64,000 nt of DNA from Cyanidioschyzon merolae. Taxonomy: Eukaryota. A model generated the notes under the pieces. It was not told where the DNA came from and ran no database searches. It saw only the letters and a list, made by a program, of their open reading frames with translations. A program made the position numbers and the translations under genes. Positions 22,359-62,386 of this stretch are shown here, in pieces (position 1 is the first letter of the stretch; every line of letters begins with the position of its first letter). The stretch lies in the NCBI GenBank assembly GCA_000091205.1, contig AP006496.2, one strand, 5' to 3'.

Positions 22359-24592
22359 GATTGGCCTATTAAGTGGTATATGAAATCACATAAGTGCGTT
22401 TCCTAGCTATAGAAGACAGCGAGTGACTTCTATTCTCCAGTAGCGTCCAAAGTGACGAGACAACCAAAAGCCGCTTTCGTCCACTGCACAAGCAGAAAGC
22501 GCTCCGCACTCCCAAACACAACACGCCAGGAAAACGCTGGATCTTGACCTGTCCCTCCAAAAAGAGAGCAGACTGGTCCGAATAGACGAGGTTCCCTCCG
22601 TGAAAACTCTAACGCCCTGTCTAAACTGGATTGAAGCAGGAAAACGCCAAGGTCTGGAGAAGGCGTCAGTGAATAAACCGTCGCCGTCGTAACTTGGTAT
22701 CCTTTCGATCGGTTGCATACCTGATTTACGCCACGTATTACGCATCGATGGTCGTCTGTTGATTTCGCGGGGCCGCTCGAGGGGACTGCTCGTGCGTCCC
22801 CGTTCGCGGGGTCTGGGTGCCCAGATCCCCGGGGCGGTACCCGCACCGGCGCGGGGACGCGTCCCCATCCGACGGGAACGGGCGTCGCGTATGCCCTACG
22901 TTTCGAATCGAATGGTGCAACGACGCGGAGGCGGTTCCATCCGCAGCCAATGAAACGCCGCCATGATCGCACGGCCGTGGTCTATGGAACGTTCTTCGTA
23001 ACCAAAAAAGAGAAATCGTCGTGCGGAAAAAAACAAAAAAAAAAACAACAAAACAGACTAGTCGCAAACTATTTATGAAAGAACAACTATCTTAAAGACC
23101 CACACACCACGCGCGCCCATGGGGTCTAGTTTTTCCGAAGAAGCTCTGAAAGTGGGTTAAACCGGGGTGCTTGGGCGACGACGAAGCAAGCCCACGACAC
23201 GGACCTTGACCGCAACGAACGGAGGGGCGGAGGCAGTGGCAGCAGATTATATTGACGAGAATTTTGAGTAGTTATCCGCTGCTCCCGAAACAACGCTGCA
23301 GGTTCGTGCACAAATCTTGGACCCATCCTCGAACTCGGGCTCAGGAGTACCTCCTACCATGGGTACCTGCCTAAACTTTGGAAACAGTCTCGGCGGATAC
23401 TTTGGAAGACGGCTGGCGGTATGTTCGCGGTCGAAGCTGGAGTAAGCGACTTGCCCGCCTATGTGTTTGGGCAGCGGATACGTAGCCACTGAAAGGGTGG
23501 TTTGCAGACTGTTCCCAGTGGTTGAGGGGAGGTTAAAGCGTCGGGTAATATAAGGGTCGCATTCGAATCGACCTTGACTAACGTACTTCTGATTCTACGC
23601 CAGCGCTGCGGCAAGCACTCAATGAACGACTGGAATGCGGGAGGCGCTGGTGGCATGTGCGCTCACACACCCCGTGGAGGCTGCGTCTAAATCGACGTTC
23701 CACGCGAAAGGTCCAGCGAATCGGATGCGCACACGGGCTCAGTGCGCTTTCCGCGCCTACCAACTGTTGGGTGTCAAGCACAAACCCGCATTGCCAACCG
23801 ACAACAACGCATTCCATGCATGGTCACGAAGGAGAGAGGCATCTCCTAGGATATATCCTAACAACCAAGTGTCTCCAGCGTGTCGTGCAGCGAAGGCAAG
23901 CCTCCATCCGCAGACTGTCCGAGCACAAAGAGACGACGAGACCCGATTCTACGGCGGGTGAACCACGCCTCGAGCCGACGCCCTCTGTGGTAATGCAACG
24001 CCGTTCTATCTCCGTGATGCATCTGCACCAATGGTAAGGACGCTACTGCGGACAATTAGGGCAGGCATCAGGCACAAGGTAGAACGAATGAAACGACCAG
24101 AATATACAAGAAGAGGTGCAGGCAATGTAACTTGGAAGTAGAGAGTTTCATGGATACCTCACCGCGCATTGGAAAAAACATACAAAAAAGAATGAAAAGG
24201 AAAAGCGTAAAATCGGAGAATGCTGGCACAAGTAAACGTATCGTCCATGAAAAAAAGAATCGCGCTCGGTGAGCGCTCCTCGGAGATCGGCCAGTCAACT
24301 GACAAGCTGCGCGTGGCGTTGTTGAAGGGAAACGCGATCCTGACCAGGAGCGTGCTGTTCTACCGGAAAAAAAGGTAGATTTCCGTTGATGTCATAACCA
24401 AGTACAGTTTTTCAATTCGTTTTTGTTTCAAACTTCAAACAAGTCTAGTCAAGTGTTTTTCGCAGTATATAACAGAAGGGTTCAAAGAGCGTTGTTTTTC
24501 AAAAAAAAACAAAAAAAGGAAAGCTATGAAAAAGCAAGTCCACGATCCCGGAGGCCCGGGGTCGCAGGCTGCCAGAAAAAAACAAAAAAACA

Positions 24593-25375
24593 GTGCCGAG
24601 TCCAGAAGAAAAGGAAGAGAGAAAGAAGAAGGACAGAAAGGGGGAGGTCCTACTTCGAAGGCGGCAAGAAAGACGGCTGTACGACGAGAAGGTGGTGAAA
24701 ACCTTCCTTCTTGGACATATCAAGGATTCCTACAGGGAAAAGTTGCGAGACGCTATCGAAAAACGTGTCGACTCGCACACCAAGAGTATTGTGAAGGCGT
24801 CGTCAGGACTGATGCATTTAGCGAGGGAGATGTATCGCGACGTGACGCAAATGGAAACGGTCGAGATTCCGGACGATTTTTTCGACAAGACCTTTCTTCG
24901 TCAGCTGATGCTTGGGACAGGTGAATCGCGGAGGGAAACTCAGCTAGGGCATGCCCTCCACGAAAACTTCGCGGAATTCCACTTCGAGGGTAATCGATAC
25001 AGGGGTGACTGGCGTATTTACAAATATAGGGCAATGAAGTACCTCACGAACCTGAAGAACTATTTGACAACGAACCTCGAACGTTTCGTGATACGCGCCG
25101 TGGTTGCACTCTACCCGGGCCTGTCTCGCAAAAGAATATGGGCCATCATCGATGGTATCACGAAAGATCGCAAGCATGAAGATGAGGTCGAATTTGTCGA
25201 CAAGAAGGCGTCAAAAGTGAGAACGAATGAAGCTTCTCTGATCCGTGCGGCTATTCAAGAGCACCGTGCAGTCTTAGGGCTGGTGACTCCAACAGACAAG
25301 ATATCAGAGTTGAAAAAAGATAAGGAAAGATACTATCGCCTCGTCCTGCGGTACCTCGTGTTTCTGGACCGATAG
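24593..25375 (+). pseudogene. Copy A, N-terminal segment of the Fanzor-like protein (lysine-rich NLS-like start, then a helical region); ends at a TAG where the copy at 47323..47763 has GAG
   Basis: Aligns along its length with 59161..60318(-) (the MKKQVDDPGGPGS...ERFMIRAVFALYPGLSRK region). Here LDR*LERKAEM versus [11 protein letters not shown] in copy 5. Confidence 0.65.
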
Positions 25376-26090
25376 CTCGAACGCAAGGCGGAGATGAAGC
25401 TGAGAGGCGAAAAAATGAAGAGTGGGAGAGACGGAAGGCTGTCCTAATGGGTAAGCGCTTCAACGGCGTTCCAGTGTGCAACCTCAAGTCACATTTTGTG
25501 AGTATCGACTCCAGAGTCCTTGACGCCGCATGAAAGAGATCAGTCCCGAGTTCGATGTTAGCAGGGAGGAGTTCTCCGGCGAAAACCGGGAGACCCACTG
25601 GAAGAATATCTTCGATTTCAAACGTCTGAGAGTGAGCAAGCAAACGGTATTCACTGGTTTGATCGAAACCGATGGAGTAGCCTTGTGTGTACACTATCGG
25701 CGGTTGAAGAAAGATCGGCCAGTTCCGCCCTCGGCTGCGCCCGTGACGAAGGATGGAGAAAAGGAGGAGTCGGATCCTGCGATGCAGGAGGTGGAGGATA
25801 ACGACTTTGTCGTTGACGTGGCGAAGGATGAAGATGAGAAGGAGGCGGATCCCACGACGCAGGAGGTGCAAGATAATGACCTTGTCGTCGACGCTGCGAG
25901 GCATGAAGATGAGAAGAAGGCGGATCCTGTGATGCAGGAGGTAGAGGATGACAACCTTGTCGTTGACGCGGCGGAGCATGAAGAAAACAAGAAGGCGGGT
26001 TCTGAGAAGCAGAAAGTGCAGGAAAACGACTTTGTCGTTGATGTGACGAAGCATGAAGTTGAGAAGGAGGCGGAACCTGCGACGTAGGAG

Positions 26091-26981
26091 GTGGAGGGTA
26101 ACGACTTTATCGTTGACGCGGCGAAGAATGAAGAAAAGAAGGCGGCGGGTCCTGTGACGCAGAAAGTGCATGAGAATGACTTTGTCGTTGGCGCAGACCC
26201 TGGAAACACAAATATCATAACCATCGCTGCACCGAAGCGTGCGGAACTTGGTATTGACGGCAACTTGCGTCAGAAAGACATGCGTCTTTTGGGGTTCTCG
26301 AGAGCGAGATACTATCGAGAATCGGGAATGATGAATGCGAGGAAGAAAATTGAGACTTGGAATTCAGGAATGAAGGATCACCTGGAAGCCTTGAGCGAGG
26401 TCATGAGCCGGGGAGCGGACTTTCGGGCTTTTCGGGAATTCATGGAAGTTCGTGTTACCCATTGGGATGCGCTGTGGGAGGAGTATACCAAGCTCCGGTG
26501 GGCTCGTTTGCGTAAGAATCTATACGGTGGGAAACAGCGGGCGTTTGCCAACTTTTTCAGTCAGTTGAGTGCCTTGAAGGAGGATGAGAGTCAGAGGCTG
26601 GTAGTGGCATACGGAGCAGGGCGCTGGGCGCCCAAGAAAGGCACTGCGCCAGCTCCAACGACAAGATCATACAAGGAGTGCGCATGGCGTTTCGTCACGA
26701 TACCTGTAGATGAGTTTCGAACGTCCTATACACACCATGAACTGGGGTGTACACTGCAGAGAGTGGAGATTGAAAAGTGTCAGCGGAGTCCTGAGGAAAT
26801 AGCAAAGTACGGACCGCTGACGGAAGAGCAAATGGGAAGGAAGGCGAAAGTGCGAGGGCTACATGCACTAGGGAGTACAACTCACAACGGCAAGAAACGG
26901 ATGGAATTCTTGAACCGAGACTTTAACGTCGCTATGAATATACGGAGATGTGCGGTGCTGGAGACGAGACCTCCAGCGTAG
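26091..26981 (+). pseudogene. Copy A, RuvC nuclease segment of the Fanzor/TnpB-like protein
   Basis: [15 protein letters not shown] (RuvC-I Asp), RAFANFFSQLSALKEDESQRLVVAYGAGRW (RuvC-II region), FRTSYTHHELGCTLQRVEIEKCQRS (ZnF-like), KKRMEFLNRDFNVAMNIRRC (RuvC-III, RD.N.A.NI). It is preceded by a TAG that aligns with CAG (Gln) in the repeat consensus. Confidence 0.7.
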
Positions 26982-27166
26982 ACATGAGAGAACTTTGCTG
27001 GACAGCCTCTGAAAGTTGAACTATATGAGAACAAGTTGTAAGCAGTAGTGGGTGGCCGGTCCAAAAAGTCTGGGAGGCGTCTACACGTCAGTTAAAGATT
27101 TTTTGTCGAGGGCGCGGTTGCCGCCACTACTTTTTCTGCCGACCGCAGCGCAATTAAAACTACTCT

Positions 27167-29259: not shown

Positions 29260-29830
29260 TGTAACTAAAGTAGCACACGAGCGTGCGGCAGACATTTTTC
29301 GGACGACAAAACGTTTAGATTGACCATGCATCCCAGAATTCGGGACGGATAATGGCTTTCGGGAAAGCGTCCATCGTGAAGCACCTACCTTCAGGTTCCA
29401 TTACCCATACTTCCTCTCGGATATACTTGTCGTTTCGTATGTTCTATCGTGCGCCAAGTGCCTGCAGTGAGCACCCGCCATAGCGCTTATATACCGCTGA
29501 AGCAGATGCTGCACGGAGACAGAACGGCTTTGCCATACCACTGAGGGCGTCGATTCGATGCTTGGTTCATCCGACACGGGATCGGAGTACTTAATCATTA
29601 TGAAAGCCTGCGAAAGCGCGAACCGATCTACGAGGAGTTCACTGCGACCAGGGTGACGCCCAGACGCAGCATACGCGCTCCTTGTCCCAGAATGAATTGC
29701 GTTGCAGACGAGCTGCGCAGGTCTCGCCATACTACCTGCCACTGGAGAAAGCATGAAGCACTAGCCGCGCAGACTCGTCCGGCTCACTGGATCTTCCGCC
29801 TAGAAGGTAAACTTTCGAAGATACGGAAAA
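29260..29830 (-). repeat. Solo copy of the transposon 5' module (variant X'), in inverse orientation to the adjacent truncated copy 3
   Basis: The minus strand reads taccttctaggcggaagatccagtgagccgg...atcgacgccctcagtggtatggcaaagccgttctgtctccgtgcagc...gatggacgctttcccgaaagcc. This matches the 5' module of copy 6 (61135 downward) and the module at 47964-48400. Confidence 0.5.
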
Positions 29831-29984
29831 TTTTCCCCATTTCAGTGCTTACTATCAAGGTAGAAAGAAACTGTTATCGAGTTGCCTGTCAGAGGTTAGT
29901 TTCTGTTCTTTTCTCTCTGGGAGAATGCTCGCTGCTCACGGGCGGACACAATTAGAGGGCAAGCCTGTGTGAGGAAGTTGGTAA

Positions 29985-30876
29985 CGAGGGCAACTTATGT
30001 CAGAAAGACATGCGTGTTTTGAAGTTCTCGAGAGCGAGATATTACCGAGAATCGGAAATAATGAATGCGAGGAAACAAAGTGAGGTGTGCAACGCAGGAA
30101 TGAGGGAGCATCTGAAAGCGATCCACCAAGTGACAAGCCGTGGGGCGGACTTTAAAGCTTTCCGGGAGTTCATGCAAGTTCGCGTGGCTCATGACGAGAC
30201 GCTGTGAAAAGAGTATACCAAGCCCCGGTGGGCTGGTCTGCGTATGAGCTTGTATTGTGGGAAGCGGCGTGCATTCGCGAATTTTTTCAATGAGTTGAGC
30301 GCCCTAAAGGAGGATGAAAGTCAGAGGCTTGTAGTAGCGCACGGAGCAGGGCGCTGGAAGACTCAAAAAGGGACTACGCCAGCTCCAACGACACGAACGT
30401 TCAAGGAGTGCGCACGGCGTTTTGTTACGATACCGATAGATGAGTTTCGAACATCGTATACAAACCATGAACTGGGGTGCACACTTCAAAGGGTCGAGAT
30501 GGAAAAGCGTCGGAGGAGCCCTGATGATATACGAAAGTACGGAGCGCTGACGGAAGAGCAAATGGAAAGGAGAGCGAAAGTTCGAGGACTAGGTGCACTA
30601 GTAAGTACAACTACCAACGGGAAGAAACGGATGGAGTTCGTGAACCGAGATTTTGACGCAGCAATCTATATAAGGAGATATGCGGTGATGGAAAGAAGAC
30701 CTCCAGAGTTGAGAAGAGAGAACTTTGTGGGGCAACCTCTCAACGTGGAATTATATGAGAAAAAGTTGAAACCAGTAGTAGGTGGCCAGTCCAAAAAAAT
30801 GCTGGGAGACGTCTGAACGTCAGTTGGAGACTTTTTGTCTAGGGCGCGTTTGCCACTACTGGACACTGCCGGCGAC
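29985..30876 (+). mobile_element. 5'-truncated Fanzor/TnpB-like transposon fragment (copy 3): RuvC C-terminal half plus conserved 3' tail
   Basis: ORF 30010..30207 ([25 protein letters not shown]) and ORF 30244..30816 (KRRAFANFFNELSALKEDESQRLVVAHGAGRW...FRTSYTNHELGCTLQRVEMEKRRRS...KKRMEFVNRDFDAAIYIRRY). Tail ...gtctgaacgtcagttggagactttttgtctagggcgcgtttgccactactggacactgccggcg. Confidence 0.7.
30244..30816 (+). pseudogene. Copy 3, RuvC-II/ZnF/RuvC-III segment of the Fanzor/TnpB-like protein
   Basis: See copy 3. RuvC-III NRDFDAAIYIRR. Confidence 0.65.
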
Positions 30877-31243
30877 AACGTTTTTCTTTTGAAAGGCGTT
30901 TGTTGTCCCAGCCGTCGCTCCGAGTGACCTCCAGCAGCACCAGCTCGGAAACCTCGCTCTATTTTCGACGCTACTCTATCAAAATATTCTTATCACAAAA
31001 TCGATCGTCTCCGAGGAAGTTGGGAAACGCAAAACGCTTCGCTAGAGTCGGGCTATCGTGGGGCGATAGTACCAGATGCGGCTTTTCCTACTGATTCTGA
31101 ATCGGGCGCTTCAAGGTGCTTCGGCACTGCTTCCGTTGCGTCATTGGGGACACGACACCAAACGCCCGGGTCAGTTCTTGCTCTTCGCGCTTCACTCGTG
31201 CGCTGTTCAGTCCACAGATGACGCACCATCAACGACCTCTTCA

Positions 31244-34642: not shown

Positions 34643-37330
34643 GAACGCCGGCAGTGTAGAGGATTGGCGAGTGACCTGCCCCAGACGAAACGTCTCCAAC
34701 TGACGTGCCGACGCCTCCGCGTCGATTTGGACCGGCCACCCACTACTGCTTTCAACTTCTTCTCATATAGTTCCACTTTGAGCGGTTATCCAACAAAGCC
34801 CTCTCGTGTCAACTCCGGGCGTCTTCGTTCCACCAGCGCATATCGCCTTAGATAGATAGCGGCGTCAAAGTCTCGGTTCACGAATTCCATCCGTTTCTTG
34901 CCATTGATTGCATACGCCAGTGCAAGCAATCCACGAACTTTTGCCCTCCTTTCCATTTGCTCCTCCGTCAGCGCTCGGTACTTTTTTATATTCTCAGGGC
35001 TCCGCTGACACTTTTCCATCTCCACTCTCTGAAGTGCACACCCCGGTTCGTGGTGTGTATACATTGTTCGGAACTCGTCTACAGGCATCGTAACAATACG
35101 CCGTGCGCACTCCTTGCACGCTCTCGTTGTTGGAGCTGGCGTAGTTCCTTTTTTGGACGCCCAGCGCCCTGCCGCATACGCTCCTACGAGCCTCTGACTC
35201 GCGTCCTATTTGAGGGCGCTCAACTCATTGAAAACGTTCGCGAATGCCCGCTGCCTCCCACAGTATAGATTCATTCGCAAACAATCACACCGGGGCTTGG
35301 TATACTCCTCCCACAGCGCATCCCAATGGGCAACATGAACTTCCATGAATTTCCGAAAAGCTCGAAAGTCCGCTCCCCGGCTCATGACCTCGCTCAAGGC
35401 TTCCAGGTGATCCTTCATTCCTGAATTCCAAGTCTCGATTTTCTTCCTTTTATCATTGTACCGGATTCGCGGTAGTATCTCGCTCGCGAGAATCTCAAGA
35501 GACGCATGTCTTTCTTACGTAAGTTACCGTCAGTACCGTCTTCCGCACGTCTGGGTGCAGCAATGGTGATGATATTCGTATTGCCAGGGTCCGCGCCAAC
35601 GACAAAGTCGTTATCCTGCACTTTCTGCGTGGCAGGATCCGCCTCCTTCTTTTCTTTCTCCTTCGTCATGTCAACGACAAGGTCGTTATCCTCCACCTCC
35701 TGCGTCGCAAGACCCGCCTCCTTCTTTTCTTCATGCTTCGTCGTGCCAACGACAAGGTCGTCATCCTGCATTTTCTGTGTCAAAGGATCCGCCTCCTTCT
35801 CATCTTCATCCTTCGCCACGTCAACGACAAAGTCGTTATCCTCCACCTCCTGCATCGCAGGATCCGACTCCTCCTTTTCTCCATCCTTCGTCACGGGCGC
35901 AGCCGAGGGCGGAACTGGCCGATCTTTCTTCAACCGCCGATAGTGTACACACAAGGCTACTCCATCGGTTTCGATCAACCCAGTGAATACCGTTTGCTTG
36001 CTCACTCTCAGACGTTTGAAATCGAAGATATTCTTCCAGTGGGTCTCCCGGTTTTCGCCGGAGAACTCCTCCCTGCTAACATCGAACTCGGGACTGATCT
36101 CTTTCATGCGGCGTCAAGGACTCTGGAGTCGATACTCACAAAATGTGACTTGAGGTTGCACACTGGAACGCCGTTGAAGCGCTTCCCCATTAGGACAGCC
36201 TTCCGTCTCTCCCACTCTTCATTTTTTCGCCTCTCAGCTTCATCTCCGCCTTGCGTTCGAGTTCTAGATCCAAAAACAAGAAATAGCGCAGAATGTGGCG
36301 ATACCATCTTTCCTTATCTTTTTTCAACTCTGATATCTTTTCTATTGGGTTCGCCAACCCCAGAACCGCACGGCGCTCTTGAATAGCCGCGCGGATTATA
36401 GAATCTTCATTCGTGCTCTCTTTTGACACCTTCTTGTCAACGAATTCGACCTCATTTTCACGCTTGCAATCGTTCGTGATGCCACTGATAATCACCCATT
36501 TTCCTTTGCGAGACAGGCCCGTGTAGAGCGCAAACACGGCGCGTATCATAAAACGTTCCAGGGTCATTGTAGAATGGTTCTTCAGATTCTTGAGGTATTT
36601 CATCGCTCCGTGTGTGTAAATATCCCGGTCACCCTTGTATCGAGTACCGTTGAAGCTCTAGAAGGGGTATGTTTTTGTGGAGGGCATGCACTAGCTCATT
36701 TTCCCGCCGCGCTTCCCCTGTACAAAGCGTCAGGCGTCGAATAAAGGTCATGTGGAAAAACCAGTCCGGAACCTCGCCTATTTTGATGTCCGTAACGTCA
36801 TCGTACATCTCCCTCGCCGCATGCATCAGTTCTAAAAAAGCCTTACGAACAGTCCTGGATTACAATTCGACACTGTTTCTGATGGCCTCTTGCAACTTTT
36901 GCCTGCACGGATCCTTGATGTGGCGTAGAAAACAGGCTTTCATCATCCTCTCATCTTACTGGTGTCTCACTTCTAGCTCCTTCTCGCCATGCCATGCCGT
37001 ACTCGTGCATGGAACAAGGCCCCCAGCGATTGTAGACGCTCCGAAAGCAGCATCGCGTGTTTCTAAGCATGTCAAGTTATGGCCTGGATCGCGTTTCCCA
37101 GCAACGGCGAGATGCGCGTTTTGTCCGGTTGTTGCCAGATCTCCAGGCGCCAAGAACAAGACACTTCGACGGACAGCGCATCGCAACGACGATTCCGCGC
37201 TCGATGCATCAACGGCGACGAGAACAGCAGCTGCGGCGGCGGCGGAGGCGGCGCGACGGCGACACAGCGCGATCGGCTCAGATGGTTAATACGAGCTGCA
37301 GGATCAATTCTGACAAGTTGAAGGGAACAC
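34643..37330 (-). mobile_element. Fanzor/TnpB-like transposon copy 4 (internal deletion of the N-terminal NLS region, 1-nt frameshift; 3' half near-identical to copy 5)
   Basis: Minus-strand ORFs 36629..36826, 36190..36603 (N-terminal segment), 35415..36107 (acidic repeats plus Ruv[19 protein letters not shown]), 35206..35418, 34786..35088 (ZnF/RuvC-III: FRTMYTHHEPGCALQRVEMEKCQRS...KKRMEFVNRDFDAAIYLRRY). Tail ends at about 34643 (revcomp ...cgccaatcctctacactgccggcgttcaa). Confidence 0.7.
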
Positions 37331-45668: not shown

Positions 45669-45932
45669 TTTATCCGCGGTGCACTGCGTTCGGAACACAC
45701 ACGAGCTAGAGAAACGTGATCCGCCAAGCGTGCAAAGTTAATCGACGCCACGAGCCTGCGCAGCGACGTTGCAAATAAGGCTTTTCGACTAAAAACAAAA
45801 ACAGGAAACGTATTATACAAGATATAGAAAAACAGAAGCCGACGGAGGGTGCACCGTCGACGTACCGAGCTCAAGATTCCAGCGCACGATCGCATCTCGC
45901 GAATCTTGTCACCACCGCCTATCTAAAGACGC

Positions 45933-47830: not shown

Positions 47831-47963
47831 GTCACAATTTACTCTGGCATTAAGAGCGGGCGGCCTGCGTCATGGCGTCGCCCTGGTCCTAACAGACTCC
47901 TAGCACGTCGCTTCACGCTGTTGCAGGCAGCAGATCTGGCTGCCCAGTTGTCAGGCTCCCAGA

Positions 47964-48400
47964 ATGATTACGTATTCCGACTCCGTATCAGGTGAAACCT
48001 TCCTCGATACGACGCCCTCAGTGGTATCGCAAAGCCGTTCTGTGTCCGTTCAGCATTGGCATCAGCGCTACAGGCGCTTTCGCTGGAGCTCAAATCAGAC
48101 ACTCGGGGCACAACAGGACGTACAAAACTACCGGTGTATCCAAAATGATGCATTAGTAATGGGCTTTGATGGTAGATGCGTCATGATGGACGCTTTTTCG
48201 ACTACCAATATCCATCTCGCCGGCTGAGATCCCCGGTCAATGTAAACGAATTTCGCCATCGAAAGAGAATCGATCGCAGCGCCCTGCGGATGCCGCCCCC
48301 CTCCCCTGCGAAATAACATCCAGACAAACATTACGTCTTTTCCCTTCAAAGGGAACACTGGTCCAAGATGCCGACCCTATGCTGATCGCAGAGCAAGCGT
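47964..48400 (+). repeat. Transposon 5' module (variant X') adjacent to copy 5 but in the opposite orientation; terminal palindrome ttcccttcaaagggaa
   Basis: The plus strand reads cgatacgacgccctcagtggtatcgcaaagccgttctgtgtccgttcagc...gatggacgctttttcgactacc...cttttcccttcaaagggaacactgg. It is homologous to 29260-29830(-) and to the 5' modules of copies A and 6. It abuts the start of the nucleotide-sugar transporter gene. Confidence 0.5.
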
Positions 48401-48415
48401 CGAAGGTCTTTGCAT

Positions 48416-51819: not shown

Positions 51820-52017
51820 CTAGACAGCGTCACATCTTACCCTATGGCGTTCCGTGGGCGTCTTTAGGTCTGATAAGGAATGTCTTAAAAGGAATGCGTA
51901 TTGGTCGTTTGGTCCATGCGTCTCCAGAAGCAGGTTATTCGCCCGAAGTACCAGCAGCGCTTCGTTTTCAGCGCAGCAGCAGCAGCAGAAGCAGAAGCAG
52001 AAGCAGAAGCACTGCAG

Positions 52018-52245
52018 TGCTGCACATTTGCGCGGCGCCGAAGGATCACCTGCAAACACGCTCGTTTCGTCAAGGCGTTCAGCATCTAGGTACTGCCGCA
52101 GCGACAACGTCATACGAACAGGTGTTTGGTGTGCTGCACATTTGCGCGGCGCCGAAGGATCACCTGCAAACACGCTCGTTTCGTCAAGGCGTTCAGCATC
52201 TAGGTACTGCCGCAGCGACAACGTCATACGAACAGGTGTTTGGTA
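52018..52245. repeat. Perfect tandem duplication, 2 x 114 bp, preceded by an (AAGCAG)n/(CAG)n tract at 51962-52014
   Basis: Unit gtgctgcacatttgcgcggcgccgaaggatcacctgcaaacacgctcgtttcgtcaaggcgttcagcatctaggtactgccgcagcgacaacgtcatacgaacaggtgtttggt occurs at 52018-52131 and again at 52132-52245 with no mismatch. It lies in the convergent intergenic space between SOD and the helicase gene. Confidence 0.9.
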
Positions 52246-52557: not shown

Positions 52558-55500
52558 TTACAGCCGCGACGGGCCATGTGTCGACGACGCGCTACTGAAC
52601 TGCACATCGGCAACGTCCTCCTCCAGCATCCATGGCTCCGCCTCGGCACGCAAACGCAGGAAAAGGTTCATCGCCTTCATTGCCTGTACATCGTCAACCG
52701 TTCCGAGTCCCAGATGACGCTCACCAACGACAACTGCCAGACACTGCGCCCGAGAGAGCGCCACATTCAAGCGTCGGGCGTCCAGGATGAAGGCAATACC
52801 CTCGTGGCTCGCGCGTGTGCGCATCTCAGCGTCGCCTCCAGATGCCGCGGTGCGATCCTGCTCGGGTGCGCAGAGACTCATTATGACAATGGGACGCTCT
52901 TGGCCCTGAAACTTATCGACGGTACCGATACGCGGTATATTGCTCGAAGCTGCATCTGCGCCCGTCTGTGGAGTGCGCGATGCAGCCCAGAGCGTAAAGG
53001 CAGTTTTCAGGGCATTCACCTGTTCGTTGTAGGGTGCCACAATCAGAATGTCGTCCACGGATACATGGCGCGGTGCCGCTGACTGCTCCGTTGCCGCCTG
53101 CGGACCGAGACGCAGTTCGAAGCGCGTCCCTTGCACCAGCATCGCAACCAGTCGCAGGACTGTAGCGACTTCCCGCTTCCAGCGCGAGCGCACGGTAGCA
53201 CTACCAGGGAACGTCGCTGTCGACGACGACGACGACGACGACACATCTACTGCGAGGAAGCCAAGCCCAGAGCGCGCTCGCCCCAGATGGTGATCCCAGA
53301 CCTGATGCTGCTCGGTACGGGCATGCCAGCGCAGCCGCCCCTGGTAAAAGGTCGTACCGATGAAGCGGCAGAGCTCAGGACAGAGGCGGTGCGTCGTCGG
53401 CAAGAACCAGCCCCAGGCGGGCCCAGCGACCGACGTGTCAGCTCCGAGCAGGTACGTCAGCGAAGACTCGCCACCGACGAGGGGTCGCCCGCTCGGCAGC
53501 AGCGAGTTATTCGCCGATACCGCCGCCAACTGCATCTGATCACCAACCAGCACCGCAGCACGCCGAACGTTCGGCAGCATGGCAACGAAATACGCTCGTG
53601 CCATCTGACCAGCTTCGTCTACGAAGAGGTAGTCGAGCCGCTCCCGCAGGTGCTCGTGTGAGAGCGCGAATGCCGTACCCGCGAGCACACTGAACGGGGG
53701 ATCCGCTTCCGACGACGTCGGCGCCATTCTCGGAACCCGAGTGGTTACGTGAACGGCGCCCGTCGGTAAACTGCACTGCTTGTGCTGGCCAATACGCCAA
53801 ATCAGCGCTGCGGTATGCGTACATCCGCGAATTCGAAGACGTTGCACCAGGGCGCCCAGTGCCTGGTCGATGGCCGCGTGGCTACTCGCACATACGCCAA
53901 TACAAAAGCGATGGCGACCAGTCGGCTGTGGCCCCAGCACCAGTTCCGCGATACACTCGGCGATGGTATGCGTTTTGCCGCAACCAGGCGGTCCCTGTAT
54001 CACCAGAACGCGCCCATCCGTGATCTGACGAAGCGATTCGACAACCTGTGGTACCTGCTCGGCAGTTCGAAAAGGTTCGTCAGACGCCACCAGAGAAGGA
54101 AATGGGCACTCGCGTCGCAAGTAGCGCGCAACCAGCGGTGTCTGTCGCGAGTGCATCGCTGCTGCACAGAGACCCAGAATGGACGACAGACGACGAAAGA
54201 AGGGCGGTCGTCGAACGATGCGCGGCAGACGCGTGCCCGCAGGGAGAAAGCGCTCGGCTGTCGCCCGGTCCACTTGAATGGATGCCGAATCGGGACCTGT
54301 GAACCGCAGACGCGCCAGCGGTACCATGAGGTAGCGCTCACCGATGAGCAAACAAGCCTGCCATTCGCCGGAATCCGAGTAGATTCGCTGCTCAGCGGGG
54401 AAGCATACGCGCAAGTTGACACGATCCGGTCGTGCGGGAGTCTCAGCGGGCGGACCGTTCATCGAAGATGCCTGCAGTTTTTTGCGCTGTGGGCGCGTCG
54501 CTTTCGATGCACTGGAATGCGTCGGCAGATCGGGCCCCTGATCCGCATACTGGACTCGAGGAGCGGCTCCTGGCGACCCAGACAGGTCACTGGATGCCTG
54601 CATCGTCGATATGGAACTGCCTTGGACATGCACGCCGCTCCCAGCCGACCCGTTGTCGTCGTGGTGCATACCCGCGATGCTGTCGACCGAGTCGCCACCC
54701 GCAACCCCCATCGGTTGTTCCAGTCGTGCTGGTGGTGTCAGCGCAGCGGATGGCGCTGTTTGGGATCGGGTTGTACTCGCCAGGCGCTCTGCAGCATCAA
54801 CGTCTCGTCCAGAGACGATAGATGTCTTTTGGGAGCTGGTACGTCGCCGCCGATCGCCAGCAGAGGCGTCGCTCGCGGACAAGGACGTTTCCGGGGACGC
54901 TGCATCCCAGTCAACTACGATCGCGTCCACAATCACATCAGGATGATCGTAGAGGTCGCGATCCAGCGCTACCTGCGGCCGCTGGCGCCATGCCAAATGC
55001 TGCAACTCTATTTTGGACTCTCGAAGGATGTAATCGACCAGATCCCGCATGGGATCATCGACCGGCAGCCGTTGCCGCACGTGCAGGGACAGCAGCATCG
55101 CGTCCCGCTCCGGTATCCCTGCAGCTCGTTCCGTGCGTAGCATCTCTATCATGGTAGCGTACGGTGTACTCGGCGCCACAGCGTGCCGAAATCGCGCAGA
55201 TCCCGAGGCATCCTCGTCGTTGTCCTCGTCGTCAGCATCACTATCACCACCATTACCACCAGCAGTAGCAGCAGCAGCAGCAGCACCAGCACCAGCATCG
55301 CTGCTGTTGACGTTCACGCAACGCCGCGCACCCGATTCCGATGATCCCGCAGCAGCACGCCACTCGCGGTGATCAGCGAGCTCCACATCTGAACCTGTTT
55401 GAACAGATTCGTTCGATAAGGTATCATTCGAATCCTGCGACGCTGCTGCTGCTGCTGATGCTGATGCTGATGCTGCCGATGATGATAAAAGCACTGGTGC

Positions 55501-57873
55501 ACGCATCCCAGCGCACGCAGCGCTGTAGACGTGGTCGTGCGTGCGCAGCCAGCCGGCGAGTGCGTGCAACGATCTGCAGATCGAGCCGCTCAGCGCCAGC
55601 AGGCGATTGCGCACGATACGCGCACGCTCAGCGTTGTTGTATCGACTGGCGATTCGATAGCGCTCATAGAGTTCTGTTGCTTCTGCTTGGGGCGCCATAA
55701 CTATAGTGCTGCAGGCGATAGCGCTACCACGAATGAGACTGTTCAGTGATCGCAAGTTGTACGGGTCGTGGTCACCGATGAGGAAGCTGGCCCGTACAAC
55801 CTGCCGCAAGTCGACTAGCGGTAACTGATCCACGGTTGCCTGCACGCCGGCATCGTGCGTCGCGAGCGCTACCTCCATCAGGGCGTGCCGATCCAGTTCG
55901 CCAAAGTGGTAGACGTGCAGCTGGGGATCCTCAAATAGCGCCGCGCGAACGTGGACCAGGAAACGCCGGAGGATGGATGTGGCTTCTTCTGGTGTGTATG
56001 CCCAGAAGGAGGTCGGCCGCGCGTACTGCCCCGGGCACCATATTCCGAGCAGAAAATACGAACCATCGTATGAAGTCATGTAGGCGATGTACATATCGTA
56101 AGGCGAAGCTGGTGGCAACAGTCGAGCAGGCTCGGCGTTCGCATGCGGCCGTGGCTCATAGGGCAGTCGGCTCGCATCGCCATGGCGATAACGCTGCAGT
56201 AAAAGGCGCGCTTGCAGCATGTACTCCGAAAGTCGCCATGGGGGAATGTCGGCAAGCTGGAGCTGCTCTGCGGCAGGCAGGCTCGCCAGCTGCTCGAGGT
56301 TGCGGAACCCTCTTTCCCATAACTGGCGCATGTCATGCAGGCGCATCTCGGTAACGAGCAACGGGCTCTGATGATAGCGCTCCAGGGCGCATGCTGCGTA
56401 GGCGTTCTGTGTGAGTCGGCGGCGGCACTCACGCATGGCAATGAGCATGTCCAAGCTGGAAGCGCTTTCCGCAATGCGCAGCGAAAGCTCCGCGAGGTTG
56501 GTCTTCAGTAGACGTGCGCCCTCACGACGAACCACGGACAGTAACTCCTCCAGTTTCGCTTCAAAGTAAAACGAGCAATCCGCTGTACGCCAACACTGAA
56601 CCTGCGCAACAACCGCATCCGATTCGCTGTCCAGACACAGATAGAAACGAGGCCAGTAGCCAAGGGTCTGCTCCTGACGTCGCTCCAAAGCCCGAACGAT
56701 CCACAGATACGCCATCGCCTGCATTGTAAACTGCGGCTGTGCTTTGCGAGCTAGTTTGCATTCAGCGACAGTGTAGCGGTACAGACGATATCGATCCCAC
56801 TGCGCCGCAGGTACGGAGGCAATCCAGCGCGCTTCAGGTGGTAGTGCAGTTGAGGGCAAACTGGCTTCTTCCCACGGATTCCACGGCGAGTCCGCAGGAC
56901 AGATTCCGCGCTGGTCGCCGAGCTGGACCCATTCTCGAACCAGCAAGTCACTGCGACCATGCAAGGTTCCGTGTTCAAGGGGCGCTTGCGCGATGATCGC
57001 AACCCCAGCTTCCATTGCTCGCAGCGTTTCCGCCACCGAGTGACAGCAGACAACCTCATGACCATGTTGTCGCAGCGCCTCAAGGAGCGTTTGCTCAAAC
57101 TCACGCCCACCCGCAATAAGGCCTTTCAAAATGGGCGCTCGGGGGCGTAAGCTCGACAAGCACGGCACCGACGCCTGCTGCGTCGAGTCCGACGGCGTGC
57201 CCCGCTGGAGGCGGCTTTGCAGGTACGCAGAGAGGCGAATCGCTCGATCCCAAGCGATGTCGCTGGGGTGCGCATTCGGCTCTTGCAAGACGAGACGTCT
57301 TGCATGGCGACGCTTGTATCCAAAACGAAAATTCATTACTCGATCTACGAGCATCATATGGAACTCGAAAGACGATTCGGTGAATCTGGCAAGCATCGTT
57401 GGTGGTAATGGCAGCAGCTGCTGCCACACGTCCGTGGACTCATCTCGCTGAATAGCTGGCGCGCCTGGCACGTCCGGAGGTGCTTCCGCTGCTGGAAGCG
57501 GCTCCTCTGGCGCCGACGCTTCCAGGCTAGCCACCAGTCGTATGCAGGACCCAGTAGCAGCACCTTTCCTACGTACAGATCGCACGAGCGATAAACTGGA
57601 CTTCTCAGGCGCCCTGTCCAGGCACTGCCTCCAAAGAAGCAGAACCGAATCGTTCCTACGGCGACGACACAGAGTGGCGTGACACCTGCCGCTGCTGTCG
57701 GAGGTGCCAAGTGTGCAGAAGATGAAGCCGCTCTGGCGGCTTGCAGACGAACTGCGGGGCGGAGCTCCGCTTCCGCGCACAGGCGCGACTGCTAGCAGCG
57801 GGATCCATCCGTCGTCTTTGCCTCCGAAAGACTCGATTAGAGACGAGTGAAGGGAGGAGGTCGCCATGGTCAA
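52558..57873 (-). CDS. Large SF1 (Upf1/Dna2-like, AAA_11/AAA_12) helicase with N-terminal PD-(D/E)xK-like nuclease motif and long Ala/Ser-rich low-complexity inserts
   Basis: 1771-aa uninterrupted ORF. Walker A LVIQGPPGCGKTHTIAECIA; motif II-like LFVDEAGQMARAYFVA; VGDQMQLAAV; C-terminal GTVDKFQGQERPIVIMSL (motif V/VI region). N-terminal third: GRSDLLVREW ... YRYTVAECKLARKAQPQFTMQAMAYLW resembles RecB/Cas4 nuclease motifs (hDhh ... E.K ... Q..Y). A second conserved-looking block is HVYHFGELDRHALMEVA...GDHDPYNLRSL. Contains (GAC)n-encoded poly-Asp and Ala/Ser runs. Confidence 0.75.
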   Translation of the reverse strand: MTMATSSLHSSLIESFGGKDDGWIPLLAVAPVRGSGAPPRSSSASRQSGFIFCTLGTSDSSGRCHATLCRRRRNDSVLLLWRQCLDRAPEKSSLSLVRSVRRKGAATGSCIRLVASLEASAPEEPLPAAEAPPDVPGAPAIQRDESTDVWQQLLPLPPTMLARFTESSFEFHMMLVDRVMNFRFGYKRRHARRLVLQEPNAHPSDIAWDRAIRLSAYLQSRLQRGTPSDSTQQASVPCLSSLRPRAPILKGLIAGGREFEQTLLEALRQHGHEVVCCHSVAETLRAMEAGVAIIAQAPLEHGTLHGRSDLLVREWVQLGDQRGICPADSPWNPWEEASLPSTALPPEARWIASVPAAQWDRYRLYRYTVAECKLARKAQPQFTMQAMAYLWIVRALERRQEQTLGYWPRFYLCLDSESDAVVAQVQCWRTADCSFYFEAKLEELLSVVRREGARLLKTNLAELSLRIAESASSLDMLIAMRECRRRLTQNAYAACALERYHQSPLLVTEMRLHDMRQLWERGFRNLEQLASLPAAEQLQLADIPPWRLSEYMLQARLLLQRYRHGDASRLPYEPRPHANAEPARLLPPASPYDMYIAYMTSYDGSYFLLGIWCPGQYARPTSFWAYTPEEATSILRRFLVHVRAALFEDPQLHVYHFGELDRHALMEVALATHDAGVQATVDQLPLVDLRQVVRASFLIGDHDPYNLRSLNSLIRGSAIACSTIVMAPQAEATELYERYRIASRYNNAERARIVRNRLLALSGSICRSLHALAGWLRTHDHVYSAACAGMRAPVLLSSSAASASASAAAAASQDSNDTLSNESVQTGSDVELADHREWRAAAGSSESGARRCVNVNSSDAGAGAAAAAATAGGNGGDSDADDEDNDEDASGSARFRHAVAPSTPYATMIEMLRTERAAGIPERDAMLLSLHVRQRLPVDDPMRDLVDYILRESKIELQHLAWRQRPQVALDRDLYDHPDVIVDAIVVDWDAASPETSLSASDASAGDRRRRTSSQKTSIVSGRDVDAAERLASTTRSQTAPSAALTPPARLEQPMGVAGGDSVDSIAGMHHDDNGSAGSGVHVQGSSISTMQASSDLSGSPGAAPRVQYADQGPDLPTHSSASKATRPQRKKLQASSMNGPPAETPARPDRVNLRVCFPAEQRIYSDSGEWQACLLIGERYLMVPLARLRFTGPDSASIQVDRATAERFLPAGTRLPRIVRRPPFFRRLSSILGLCAAAMHSRQTPLVARYLRRECPFPSLVASDEPFRTAEQVPQVVESLRQITDGRVLVIQGPPGCGKTHTIAECIAELVLGPQPTGRHRFCIGVCASSHAAIDQALGALVQRLRIRGCTHTAALIWRIGQHKQCSLPTGAVHVTTRVPRMAPTSSEADPPFSVLAGTAFALSHEHLRERLDYLFVDEAGQMARAYFVAMLPNVRRAAVLVGDQMQLAAVSANNSLLPSGRPLVGGESSLTYLLGADTSVAGPAWGWFLPTTHRLCPELCRFIGTTFYQGRLRWHARTEQHQVWDHHLGRARSGLGFLAVDVSSSSSSSTATFPGSATVRSRWKREVATVLRLVAMLVQGTRFELRLGPQAATEQSAAPRHVSVDDILIVAPYNEQVNALKTAFTLWAASRTPQTGADAASSNIPRIGTVDKFQGQERPIVIMSLCAPEQDRTAASGGDAEMRTRASHEGIAFILDARRLNVALSRAQCLAVVVGERHLGLGTVDDVQAMKAMNLFLRLRAEAEPWMLEEDVADVQFSSASSTHGPSRL

Positions 57874-57963
57874 ACGCGTGCCCGCTTGAGACGACCCGCA
57901 CCATCAACGCCGCTCGAAAGTCGAACGGCGCCAACGGTGTACAGTAGTGGCGGCAACCGCGCC

Positions 57964-58908
57964 CTAGACGAGACGTCTCCAACGGGCGTGCAGACGCCTC
58001 CCAGTTTGTTTGAACCGGAAACCCACTACTGCTTCCAACTTCTTCTCATATTGTCCCACTTTAAGAGGTTGTCCAAGAAAATTCTCTCGTGTCCACTCTG
58101 GAGGTCTTTTCTCCAGGACCGCACATTTCCTTGTATTGATGGCGGCATTCAAATCTCGGTTCACAAACTCCATCCGTTTCTTCCCATTGGTAGTTGTACT
58201 TCCTAGTGCACCTAGTCCTCGCACTTTCACTCTCCTTTCCATTTGCTCTTCCGTCAGCGGTCCGTACTTTTTCATATCCTCAGGGCTCCGTTGGCACGTT
58301 TCCATCTCGACCCTCTGAAGTATACACCCCAGTTCATGGTATGTATAGGACGTTCGGAACTCACCTACAGGTAGTGTAACAAACCGGTGTGCGCACTCCT
58401 TGTACGTTCTTGTCGTTGGAGCTGGTGTACACAATTTTTGGGTCTTCCATCGCCCCGCCCCATACGCTGCTACGAGCCTCTGACTTTCATCCTCCTTCAG
58501 GGCGCTCAACTGATTGAAAAAGTTGGCAAACGCCCGCTGCTTCCCACAATACAAATTCATTCGGAAACGAGCCCACCGGGGCTTGGTATACTCCTCCCAC
58601 GGCGCATCCCAATGGGCAACATGAACTTTCATGAATTTCCGAAAAGCTTCAAAGTCCGCTCCTCGGCTCGCCACCTCGCTCAAAGCTTCTAGGTCATCCT
58701 TCATTCCTGAATTCCGGCTCTCGATTTTCTCCCTCGCATTCATTATACCCGATTCTCGATTGTATCTCGCTATCGAGAACCTCAATAGACGCATGTCTTT
58801 CCGACGTAAACTACCGTCAGTACCATCTTCCGCACACTTCGGTGCTGCGATGGTGATGATATTTGTGTTTCCGGGGTCCGCGCCAACGACAAAGTCGTTA
58901 TCGTGCAC
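57964..58908 (-). pseudogene. Copy 6, RuvC-I/II/ZnF/RuvC-III segment of the Fanzor/TnpB-like nuclease
   Basis: [21 protein letters not shown]; KQRAFANFFNQLSALKEDESQRLVAAYGAGRW; FRTSYTYHELGCILQRVEMETCQRS; KKRMEFVNRDLNAAINTRKCAVLEKRP. Confidence 0.7.
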
Positions 58909-59160
58909 TTTCTACGTCACAGGGCCCGCCTCCTTCTTTTCTTCATGCATCACCGCGTCAACGACAAGCACGTTATCCTCCACCTCCTGCGTCTCAGGAC
59001 CCGCCTGCTTCTTTTCTTCATGCATCGCCGCGTTAACGACAAGGTCGTTATGTTGCACTTTCTGTGTGGCAGGATCCGCCTCCTCCTTTTCTTTATCCAT
59101 TGTCACGGGCACACCCGAGGGCGGGACTAAACGATCTGCCTTCAAACGCCGATTGTGTAC

Positions 59161-60318
59161 TCACGTGGCTACTCCATCAGTTTCGATCAACCCAGTAAAT
59201 ACCGTTTGCTTGCTCACTCTCAGACGTTTGAAATCGAAGATATTCTTCCAGTACGTCTCCCGGTTTTCGCCGGAGAGTTCCTCACTGTTGAAATTAAACT
59301 CGGGACTGATCTCCTTCATGATGCCGTAAAGGACGCCTGAATCGATACTCACCAAATGTGACTTGAGGTTGCACATTGGAACACCGTTGAAGCGCTTCCC
59401 CATTAGGAAAGCCTTCCGTCTCCCCCACTCTTCAGTGTTTTCCTCACTCAGCTTTATCTCCGCCTTGCGTCCAAGTTCTAGATCCAGAAACAAGAAATAG
59501 CGAAGAATGAGGCGATAGTGTCTTTCCTTATCTTTTTTCAACTCTGATATCTTTTCTGCTGGACTCGGCAGCCCCAGTACCCCACGGCGCTCTTGAATAG
59601 CCGCACGGATGACAGAAGTTTTACACCTTCTCCTGCGTGACGCCTTCTCTCCGACGAATTCGATCTCATCTTCATGCTTGTGATCGTTCGTGATGCCATT
59701 GATAATCGACCATACTCCTTTGCGAGACAGGCCCGGGTACAGCGCAAACACGGCGCGTATCATGAAACGTTCGAGGTTCATCGTCAAATGGTTCCTCAGG
59801 TTCGTGAGGTAATTCATTGCCCCGTGTTCGTAAATATCCCGGTTACCAATGTATCGAGTGCCCTCGAAGCGGAATTCCGCGAAGTTTTCGTGGAGGGCGT
59901 GTACCCGCTCATTTTCCCTCCGCGTTTCCCTTGCGCCGAGCATCAAGTGACGAACAAAGATATTGTCGAAAAACTCGTCTGGAATCTCGACTGTTTCCAT
60001 GTGCGTCACATCGCGATACATCTCCCTCGCCATACGCATCAGTCCTGAAGACGCCCTGACAATACTCTTGGAGTACGAATCGAGACGTTTTTTGATAGCG
60101 TCTCGCAACTTTTCCCTGTACGGATCCTTGATATGTTCAAGAAGACCGGCTTTCACCACCATATCGTCGTACAGTTGTCTTTCTTTCCGCCTTCGACGTA
60201 GGGCCTCTCCCCTTTGCTTCTTCTTCTCTTCCTTTTCTACTCGACTCGGCACTGTTTTTTGTTTTTTTCTAGCAGCCGGCGACCCTGGGCCTCCAGGATC
60301 GTCGACTTGCTTTTTCAT
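59161..60318 (-). pseudogene. Copy 6, N-terminal segment of the Fanzor-like protein (NLS-rich; putative REC/WED-equivalent region)
   Basis: 385 aa. KK/RR-rich first 50 aa. Conserved with copy A ORF 24593..25375 plus 25530.. (MKEISPEF...[22 protein letters not shown]). Confidence 0.65.
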
Positions 60319-62386
60319 AGGTTTCCTTTTTTTTTAGTTTTTTGAAAAAGAACGCTCTTTGAACCCTTATGTAATATACTGCGAACAAACACTTGACTAG
60401 ACTTATTTGAGGGTGAAACACAAATGAACTCAAAAACTGTACTTTGCTACGACTTTAACGCAAATAAAACTTGTACAGTAGAGCAGTGCGCTCCTGATCA
60501 GGATCGCGTTTCCCTTCAATGGCGACATGCGCGTCGTGTCAGGTGACTGCCTGATCTCCCGGGTGCGCTCACCGAGCGCGATTTTTAGAATGGACAAAAC
60601 GTTTCCTTGTGCCAGCGTTCTCCGATTGTGCGCATTTTTCTTTTCTTTCTCTCTTTTTGTGTTTTTTTCAGTGCGCGGTGAGGTATCCATCAACCCCCTA
60701 CCTCCATGTTACATTACCGATACTTCATCGCGGATATTCTGGTCGTTTCATACGTCCTATGATGTGTGCCTAGTACCTGCCGTGCCGTACCCGCCTTTGG
60801 ACCTTAACAGCTGGGGCAGATAGTTCATAGAGACAGAACGGCTTTTCCATACCACAGAGGGCGCCGGCTCGAGGCGTGGTTTACCCGACGTAGAATTGGG
60901 TGTCGCCGTCAGTTTGTGCTCAGACAGTCTGCGGATGCAGGTTTGTCTTCGCTGCACGAAACGCTGGAGACACTTGGCTGTTAGGATATATCGTGGGAGC
61001 CGCCTCTCTCTTTCGTGATCATGCATGGAATGCGTTGTTGTCGGTTGGCAATGTGGCTTCGTGCTTGACACCCACCCACCACTGTGGGTAGGCGCAGAAA
61101 GCACTGGGCCCGTGTGCGCATCCGATTCGCTAGACCTTCCGCCTAGAAGGTAGCATGTGAGTTTCTTCGCCACTAATGAGCGCTGAGGCTCGGTTAGCGG
61201 ACCATAAGTTGCCAGTGCTACACTCAGAGTGAGTGTCCGGTCTTCGACTATCACGATGATGCCCAGCTGCTGGTGTCCTCCAAGGAGCTCGCTGCGCTCC
61301 TGCTTCCAGCGCGGGCACTGTAAGCCTAAATATGTCAGCGTCTCGGGGATCTCGTCTCGACAGCAGGGACAGTGTGATTCCCAGTGCGATTCCAGTGTTC
61401 CTATACGGCTTAGAGACGGTGCTGGTAGCCAGAAGCCACCAACGCGGATTTTGGCGAGCCACTGGGTACCTCGAGCAAGTCCCGGGAATTCCAGCGCCTC
61501 CTACCAGTGCCTGCATGTGTATGCTAGGTTGTAGTTCCGGTATAGAGTCAAGCCGGCGTTAAGGGCGCGACTGGTACCGTGTCTACGTTCCCATATTGTT
61601 GTTTGGACCGTTCGCTTCAGGCGGTGGGAGCCTTCTACATTTCTGGGGAACGATTCGAGCGCATTTTCGCCTAAGAGGCGCTTCAACCAAATATGCGTCC
61701 ATTTCATCCTTCTTGCGACGCACCTACCGGTACCGAGTACGTCTCGAGCCTCGTACGCGCTACCGCGGCATATGCCGACCTGCCTCTCTCTCTTCAGTGC
61801 AGAGCGGAGGACTCGACGCTGGACCTCTTAACGACACCGAAAGGCGCTGCTGTTGCTTCTGGGGAAGCACCCGCGACTATCCGTCCAACGGTCCGTACCA
61901 GAGACGTTTGGCACTAGCCCCTAGCGCACTGACAGCTTCGTGCTGCTTGCCGGGTTCGTTATTCGGGCTGCCGAGCGTTTCGGGACGGTAGTCACAGCGA
62001 GCGCCTCCGCTGAGGCAGTTTCACGCTCTTGGGGAAGGGGCGCGCACTTTGCAGGTCGCCAACGTGTCCAGCGTCAAGCCCAACGACTGAACTGCCGTCG
62101 ACTGAGTCGCACACGTACACATGCTCACTGGGACATCAGCGCCTTTCGCCGCTTTGGACTGAGGCTTTGGCGGCGTTTACTACCCGAGTCGGAGAAAAGT
62201 GCGGCGGGTCCGTGAATACTGGGCGGTTTATTGCAGCACTTGACCAGGGAGAAGGGTTGCAGTGAACAGCAGCACGCTACGACTACTGCGCAAAGCTGTT
62301 CGCGCGCGTCTGGTAGCGCTTCCAAGTTGTGTCGAGCGCAGCATAGGCACGAAGCAACGACCCCAAAACGGACGCCCTGAACCTGC

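Follow-up and report, generated by a model that had tools for sequence, protein, structure and literature searches.

Which element has given rise to the six related loci that lie dispersed over a 64,000-nucleotide stretch of the Cyanidioschyzon merolae genome (contig AP006496.2 of assembly GCA_000091205.1; hereafter the window), and does it encode an RNA-guided nuclease? The original prediction, made from the sequence alone, proposed a family of Fanzor/TnpB-like transposons. Our results indicate that the loci are very probably old, inactivated copies of CMe-1A, a Fanzor1-encoding repeat of C. merolae, which they match in host and in published description. The finding is already known: a 2013 publication reported both the family and that it encodes a Fanzor1.

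The copies were recovered with a six-frame motif scan, a self-BLAST of the window and a tblastn search with P0001, an intact relative described below. Self-BLAST yields one repeat family, and blastn E-values between copies go down to 0.0, which therefore cannot be attributed to chance. The limits and state of the copies are as follows:

1156-3328, plus strand: copy c0, divergent (66-76% DNA identity to the others), several frame changes, catalytic triad lost
23695-27131, plus strand: copy A, near full length (3.44 kb), terminal hairpin lost, homology stops at 27131
29969-30908, plus strand: copy c3, a 0.9-kb 3' fragment of 253 codons that keeps the 3' tail and terminal hairpin
34646-36967, minus strand: copy c4, 5'-truncated and frameshifted, terminal hairpin lost
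45910-47830, minus strand: copy c5, 5'-truncated and frameshifted, hairpin remnant kept
57899-61151, minus strand: copy c6, the best-preserved copy, core 5' end at 60582, with a 5' module upstream

All six had been predicted at these places, and the motif scan, self-BLAST and tblastn bear them out. Predicted and observed limits differ by no more than tens of bases, except on the 5' side of c0 (1380, against 1156 here) and of c4 (37330, against 36967, beyond which no homology was found). DNA identity between copies amounts to 66-85%, with 83% over 2.3 kb for the two long copies A and c6; a single pair, c4/c5, reaches 96.6% over 1.1 kb. The shorter copies c3, c4 and c5 end at a common 3' end. 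The resemblance between c4 and c5 is itself mosaic: 96.6% applies to the 3' 1.1 kb (34683-35820 versus 45972-47114) and about 86% to the adjoining 0.9 kb (35672-36596 versus 46886-47817), a pattern in the aligned sequences that suggests gene conversion or recombination between copies.

The motifs quoted in the original prediction, including LVVAYGAGRW, are all present in the motif scan. GADPGNT[NK] occurs at four loci, FRTSYT.HELGC at three and NRDLNAAIN at one; elsewhere the copies carry variants of them. The further claim that each copy carries the nuclease hallmarks in order stands for A, c4, c5 and c6, which keep the catalytic residues D/E/D. It fails for c3, where the RuvC-II Glu and RuvC-III Asp are present and the RuvC-I region is absent, and for c0, where the three positions have changed (D->Y, E->G and D->A); moreover, none of the copies is intact. 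In c4 the conserved Gly of the RuvC-II position is replaced by Ala. All six window copies are pseudogenes or fragments. The open reading frame (ORF) of copy A, starting with the ATG at 24526, contains two frame changes and one in-frame stop, with intact D/E/D codons (D 26196-26198, E 26712-26714, D 26919-26921). Copy c6 has a single frame of 785 codons (60318..57964) with two in-frame stops (TGA 59161-59163 and TAG 58912-58914), and here too the D/E/D codons are intact (D 58876-58878, E 58360-58362, D 58153-58155). Several frame changes are found in each of c4, c5 and c0. Reassignment of stop codons was considered for the in-frame stops of c6 and rejected: one of them is a CAG->TAG change where other copies have Gln, and the other copies are frameshifted.

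Assignment to CMe-1A starts from the host, which had been guessed to be a GC-rich, intron-poor microbial eukaryote. The window ORF at 15632-16762, a dTDP-glucose 4,6-dehydratase, is 100% identical over its full length (376 amino acids) to a C. merolae 10D protein, whereas the next-best match, from Cyanidium caldarium, reaches 83%; the guess thus comes down to C. merolae. According to domain scans, the remaining window ORFs are intronless, eukaryote-type housekeeping genes (PMT, FTR1, sugar-nucleotide dehydratases, E2 acyltransferase, Fe/Mn superoxide dismutase, TPT transporter and SF1 helicase). For this species, Bao & Jurka (2013, Mob DNA 4:12; PMC3627910) list CMe-1A as the sole Fanzor1 family. 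They report about 150 genome copies, each ~80% identical to the consensus; the latter is ~3 kb long and without terminal inverted repeats (TIRs), its target-site duplications (TSDs) are not determinable and its classification is given as unknown (PMC3627910). Its 5' 635 bp share 95% identity with TE-N2_CMe, a repeat in its own right with 70 copies; some ORFs are still intact, though the family is old at ~80% identity to the consensus (PMC3627910).

The window copies share with CMe-1A the host, a length of ~3 kb, an identity of ~80% between copies, the lack of TIRs and of determined TSDs, and a single Fanzor1 ORF. Their 5' part, too, may be common to a separate short repeat, and intact copies exist elsewhere (P0001). 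No tested feature contradicts the identity, the comparison being made with the published description. In the accessible CMe-1A literature we found no mention of four features treated below: the zinc-finger loss, the linker of 25-residue repeats, the 5' modules with their inversion, and the strand-biased 3' hairpin.

Is the encoded protein a Fanzor1? A word-indexed search yielded 25 relatives, all from JGI metagenomes. Among the relatives, P0001 is intact (752 amino acids) and 69% identical to c6 overall and ~80% to the C-terminal ORFs; P0025 (635 amino acids) is 32% identical. An exhaustive hidden Markov model (HMM) search with the first alignment gave 2,275 representatives of 50%-identity clusters at E<=1e-3, of which 363 at E<=1e-30, typically ~600-650 amino acids long. 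The family profile was based on an alignment of 40 sequences (residue numbers follow P0001). Searched against PDB chains, it matches the solved Fanzor1 proteins of Parasitella parasitica (9cf0, E 1.3e-22), Spizellomyces punctatus (8gkh, 5.3e-18) and Guillardia theta (9cer, 1.9e-11), placing DPGR on DPGR/DPNK, DEFRT on DEFRTS/DEYKTS and NRDLNAA on NRDQAA/NRDMLS. The Pfam family PF07282 (Cas12f1-like TNB) is matched by 6 of the 40 relatives. For several relatives the precomputed Pfam assignments include a weak match to PF26935 (DUF8286); a fresh Pfam scan did not reproduce it.

The predicted fold points in the same direction. An AlphaFold2 model of P0001, built on the family alignment (pLDDT 80.1, pTM 0.78), superimposes best on Fanzor1 structures: the top seven Foldseek hits in the PDB are all Fanzor1, with E-values of 1.3e-17 to 1e-14 and target-normalised TM scores of 0.50-0.70, followed by Cas12 types at E ~1e-3 or worse. 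Compared with SpuFz1 (8gkh), PpFz1 (9cf0) and GtFz1 (9cer), the bilobed fold of the family model is alike at an identity of only 12-15%. The RuvC-I Asp in DPG, the RDxNAA-like RuvC-III, the Gly at the canonical RuvC-II position and the Glu in DE[FY]xT[ST] just before the TNB domain are shared. The family differs in a TNB zinc ribbon without the first CxxC and in a disordered tandem-repeat linker ahead of RuvC-I, and its ωRNA and cleavage would be assigned by analogy with the solved systems. Overall, family profile, predicted fold and conserved D...E...D support the Fanzor/TnpB reading of the original prediction, and both its structural check and its alignment check come out in favour. None of the 25 close relatives stems from the NCBI annotation of C. 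merolae 10D, all being JGI metagenome gene calls; the Fanzor ORFs appear unannotated in the 10D reference proteome.

The 40 sequences also settle where the catalytic Glu lies. D484, P485, G486, G623, E656, R724, N727 and N731 are invariant, and D725, the RuvC-III Asp, is conserved in >=90%. The block LVVAYGAGRW, at which the prediction had placed the RuvC-II Glu while calling it unclear, holds the invariant G623, and the invariant E656 follows 33 residues downstream in DEFRT, just before the TNB insert. In Fanzor proteins the catalytic site is rearranged: the canonical position is taken by a Gly/Pro that is inert, and the essential Glu is a different one, ~45 residues away (PMC10530073). In solved Fz1 structures this Glu is located on the loop joining the fifth strand to the TNB domain (PMC11423790), and Bao & Jurka call 'G500 and E536' of Fanzor1 extremely conserved (PMC3627910). 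Judged by the aligned residues, the G623/E656 layout matches the rearranged Fanzor site.

The zinc finger had been described as partly degenerate, and this proves to be a feature of the sampled clade. The window copies lack its first CxxC, and so do nearly all of the 40 relatives; a single Cys in 'LLWC.ST' is common among the latter, and P0170 alone keeps Cys pairs. Given that the degeneracy is common to the sampled relatives, it does not reflect decay of the window copies. Bao & Jurka list the C4 zinc finger as strictly conserved in Fanzor/TnpB (PMC3627910). In our reading, this clade, which in profile and fold is otherwise Fanzor1, has lost it as a derived trait.

A 25-residue repeat, encoded by 75-bp tandem arrays, immediately precedes the RuvC-I strand on its N-terminal side:

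25742-26194, plus strand: copy A, six 75-bp units
35597-35893: copy c4, about 4 units
46883-47060: copy c5, about 2.4 units
58878-59100: copy c6, about 3 units

The region of P0001 that matches these repeats is predicted to be a disordered linker. The layout that best explains the data is a protein with a basic N-terminus, a helical REC/WED part, a linker of 25-residue repeats and a RuvC domain with a zinc-less TNB insert.

Has this protein been of use to anything? Over the C-terminal 240-269 codons of the window copies, the pairwise ratio of nonsynonymous to synonymous substitutions (Ka/Ks) is 0.22-0.41 for all pairs except the recent pair c4/c5, which differs by 1.4% over these codons with a Ka/Ks of ~1. 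Most divergence therefore arose under purifying selection, after which the copies decayed in place. This shows that the protein was under selection while the family diversified, and the intact ORFs reported for the old CMe-1A family agree with it (PMC3627910). Selection on the protein (Ka/Ks ~0.25), together with the lack of any transposase, TIRs or TSDs, might also be expected from a domesticated host gene family rather than a mobile element. We consider this highly improbable, however, since stops or frameshifts are found in all six window copies, and copies are 5'-truncated and mosaic. At least 71 further loci lie in differing flanks in closely related metagenome contigs, about 150 genome copies are reported (PMC3627910), and the distant relative P0025 adjoins a DDE_3 transposase in six contigs.

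The anatomy of the element was drawn from those further loci in closely related metagenome contigs, some of which are 99.3% identical to the window and therefore belong to the same species in the metagenome samples. The C. merolae genome measures roughly 16.5 Mb; relative to 150 copies over that size, six copies in 64 kb correspond to about ten times the genome average. Nearly all copies extend to a common terminal hairpin. The codon periodicity of c6 (third position least conserved) fades at ~58000. In the window the hairpin is absent from A and c4 and otherwise located as follows:

57899-57939, minus strand: hairpin at the 3' terminus of c6, with a stem of 19 bp that includes 5 G·U pairs in sense; directly behind it the element ends
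30871-30908, plus strand: terminal hairpin of c3
3292-3328, plus strand: hairpin remnant of c0
45910-45945, minus strand: hairpin remnant of c5

The stem of 15-19 bp is rich in G·U on the sense strand, and the two strands fold accordingly: the c6 hairpin reaches -31.4 kcal/mol in sense (z -7.0) against -19.0 in antisense (z -3.0). The contrast is similar for the hairpins of c3 and of loci L050 and L044. Folding of 51 copies gave the more stable structure for the sense strand in 40 (Wilcoxon p ~1e-6, copies not being independent), and an upstream control segment shows no strand signal. Subfamilies carry different stem sequences, with an unrelated perfect 15-bp palindrome in L034. As the 3' arm varies together with the 5' arm, the 3' arm belongs to the element. 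An RNA-level role of the hairpin fits these results best. Published Fz1 ωRNAs are 75-150 nt long, overlap the 3' end of the ORF and reach the end of the element; by this analogy we infer that the hairpin is a candidate for the last scaffold stem of an ωRNA, with the flank as guide.

At the other end, limits are less uniform. Almost all copies share the core start 'ATCGCGCTCGGTGAGCGC...' (24259 in A, 60582 in c6), ~265 nt upstream of the ATG, which opens with a small hairpin (GCGCTC-GGT-GAGCGC) and is followed by several short palindromes. What lies upstream of the core is either a unique flank or one of at least three alternative repeated modules. The modules adjoining the core measure ~0.6 kb, their homology reaching its limit ~570-650 bp upstream of the core start. 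One module, of which fragments also stand inverted next to c3 and c5, is precisely inverted between loci L001 and L019. The window contains:

23695-24258, plus strand: 5' module of copy A
29312-29610, minus strand: solo 5'-module fragment with homology to A 23955-24141 and to c6 60686-60889; its neighbour c3 has the opposite orientation
47952-48248, plus strand: second solo 5'-module fragment, inverted relative to c5

These solo fragments probably correspond to the TE-N2_CMe of Bao & Jurka, judged by its published description. Simple 5' truncation or internal deletion was rejected as the origin of c3 and c5, the adjoining 5'-module fragments being inverted solo pieces.

The homology of the c6 5' module with other loci continues to ~61717. 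A module of ~1.25 kb occurs at 61151-61717 (minus strand) upstream of c6, in L001 (6413-7667) and in L019 (429-1645); it begins with 'CTGGCACTCGGAC' and has an A-rich run at its end. The module stands in either orientation beside the Fanzor core, and its 5' side may be raggedly truncated, as in copy A and L036. The module upstream of c6 may be a separate element.

Shared 3' ends and variable 5' truncation would be explained if the element had spread via an RNA intermediate, as retroposed Fanzor mRNAs. Copies c3, c4 and c5 indeed keep the 3' end and lack varying 5' amounts, and one upstream module ends in an A-rich run. Even so, we give retroposition very little credence: the 3' end of the element is a hairpin without a poly(A) tail, window scans show no reverse transcriptase, and c3 and c5 are not simple truncations, given that the inverted solo 5' fragments next to them belong to a separate repeat.

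How, then, did CMe-1A move? The label 'transposon' in the original prediction goes further than the results do: domain scans show no transposase domain in any large window ORF, TIRs were looked for in copy A and none lie at its ends, and no TSD was found. An empty site was sought in orthologous metagenome contigs, but those that are orthologous (L027/L028 and L077) carry the same copies. Without a transposase of their own and without TIRs, the copies do not resemble an autonomous DNA transposon such as Tc1/mariner, Helitron or IS607. A different arrangement is seen for P0025: in six contigs, L002-L007 (e.g. L002 3194-6048), it comes immediately downstream of a transposase of the DDE_3 (Tc1/mariner) type. 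This is the arrangement of Tc1/mariner-borne Fanzor1 (e.g. PGv-1 and PUl-1) described by Bao & Jurka, whereas the window copies have neither a DDE gene nor TIRs. The neighbours of P0025 are kinase-like proteins with SAP-like C-termini at low GC, and the contigs suggest a giant-virus or similar genome. The GtFz1, NlovFz2 and MmeFz2 loci lack inverted repeats and an associated transposase just as CMe-1A does.

An element without TIRs, with a small hairpin at the 5' end of its core, a long one at its 3' end, a fixed 3' limit and ragged, modular 5' limits might be a non-autonomous HUH-type element (Helitron2-like or IS200/IS605-like). It would then be mobilised in trans, with the hairpins as transposase sites and the Fanzor as passenger or helper. 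These properties recall the one-ended transposition of Fanzor1-carrying Helitron2 elements with hairpins at both ends (PMC3627910). We nevertheless judge an HUH origin, the foremost alternative explanation of the hairpins, unlikely. Window scans show no Rep/Hel or Y1 transposase; a 1771-residue helicase beside c6 matches only the Upf1-type domains AAA_11/AAA_12 and no Rep domain; the G·U-rich, sense-stable hairpin fits RNA better than a DNA signal; and Bao & Jurka left the family unclassified (PMC3627910). Bacterial TnpB of IS200-IS605 (OMEGA) shares with CMe-1A the RuvC nuclease core, the lack of TIRs and TSDs, hairpins near the ends and, by analogy, an RNA that would arise at the 3' end and take its guide from the flank. 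CMe-1A differs in its eukaryotic host, a much longer protein, the rearranged Glu, the lack of TnpA and the lack of a Pfam match for single sequences.

Returning to CMe-1A as a Fanzor1 element, the unit consists of a core of ~2.7-2.9 kb, with a ~265-nt leader opening with the small GC hairpin, one ORF of ~750 amino acids, and a 3' tail of ~100-190 nt that overlaps the end of the ORF and terminates with the long hairpin. By analogy with SpuFz1, GtFz1 and PpFz1, the protein would bind an ωRNA transcribed in sense at the element's 3' end, whose guide would come from the DNA immediately past the hairpin. Guide-matched DNA would be cleaved by the RuvC site with its Asp in DPG, its Glu in DEFRT and its Asp in RDxNAA.

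Some further features of the window stand apart from the repeat family. The low-GC (48%) stretch at 20000-23100 contains three minus-strand ORFs (20824-21504, 21552-22358 and 22407-22868) without Pfam match. It is polymorphic relative to the 99%-identical contig L028, which has ~1.8 kb extra at 21572/21597 and lacks 583 bp (22479-23062) present in the window; the stretch may be another mobile element. The helicase mentioned above occupies 52558-57873 (minus strand), is an SF1 helicase with a long unannotated N-terminal region, and its ORF begins on the same strand, 26 bp past the c6 3' hairpin. As the flanks of other copies are unrelated, this proximity is probably a coincidence. A perfect tandem duplication of 114 bp x 2 (100% identical) follows the helicase ORF closely downstream, at 52017-52244, and at 10928-11004 an 11-bp unit, CCCGTGCCGAT, is repeated 7 times. 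The ORF at 37384-38304 (plus strand), beside c4, has a Trefoil (P-type) domain (E 2.8e-7), which is unexpected in a red alga. Rfam and tRNA scans of the window gave no match.

Does the clade function today? We put forward only tentatively, and with more doubt than confidence, that CMe-1A and its metagenomic relatives constitute a working Fanzor1 lineage without zinc ribbon, in which the last stem of the ωRNA is the G·U-rich terminal hairpin. Several results weigh against the main reading, that of CMe-1A as a Fanzor1 element with an ωRNA. None of the six window copies is intact and c0 is without its catalytic triad. The profile search suggested with the original prediction succeeds with the 40-sequence profile and fails with c6: the reconstructed c6 protein and its C-terminal third have no sequence match in Pfam, NCBIfam or the PDB. 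Likewise, OrfB_IS605 and OrfB_Zn_ribbon of Pfam are unmatched by single window-copy sequences, and a 10-sequence profile finds no match among PDB sequences. The C4 zinc finger that follows [TS][TS] in the motif of Bao & Jurka is absent, so that even the intact relatives remain putative nucleases. As for the RNA, conservation of the last ~100 nt and of the hairpin shows no codon periodicity and is about as high as that of third codon positions, so the tail is no better conserved than those. RNAalifold on 49 aligned 3' tails gave only 4 pairs, no covariation and no supported consensus, because mixed hairpin registers between subfamilies defeat the alignment; the copies were then folded singly, with the results given above. 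Our literature search found no study on the ωRNA or activity of the C. merolae Fanzor1 family.

Summarizing, CMe-1A has risen to ~150 copies as an element for which no transposase, TIRs or TSDs were found. Fanzor1 proteins are now known as RNA-guided nucleases, and a clade that keeps selected catalytic residues without the zinc finger is of modest value as a lead. It occurs in a thermoacidophilic alga and, beside a DDE_3 transposase, in low-GC, possibly viral contigs. C. merolae lives in hot acid springs. If the proposal of a working lineage is true, P0001 and other intact members would be RNA-guided nucleases that tolerate heat by nature and do without a zinc finger.

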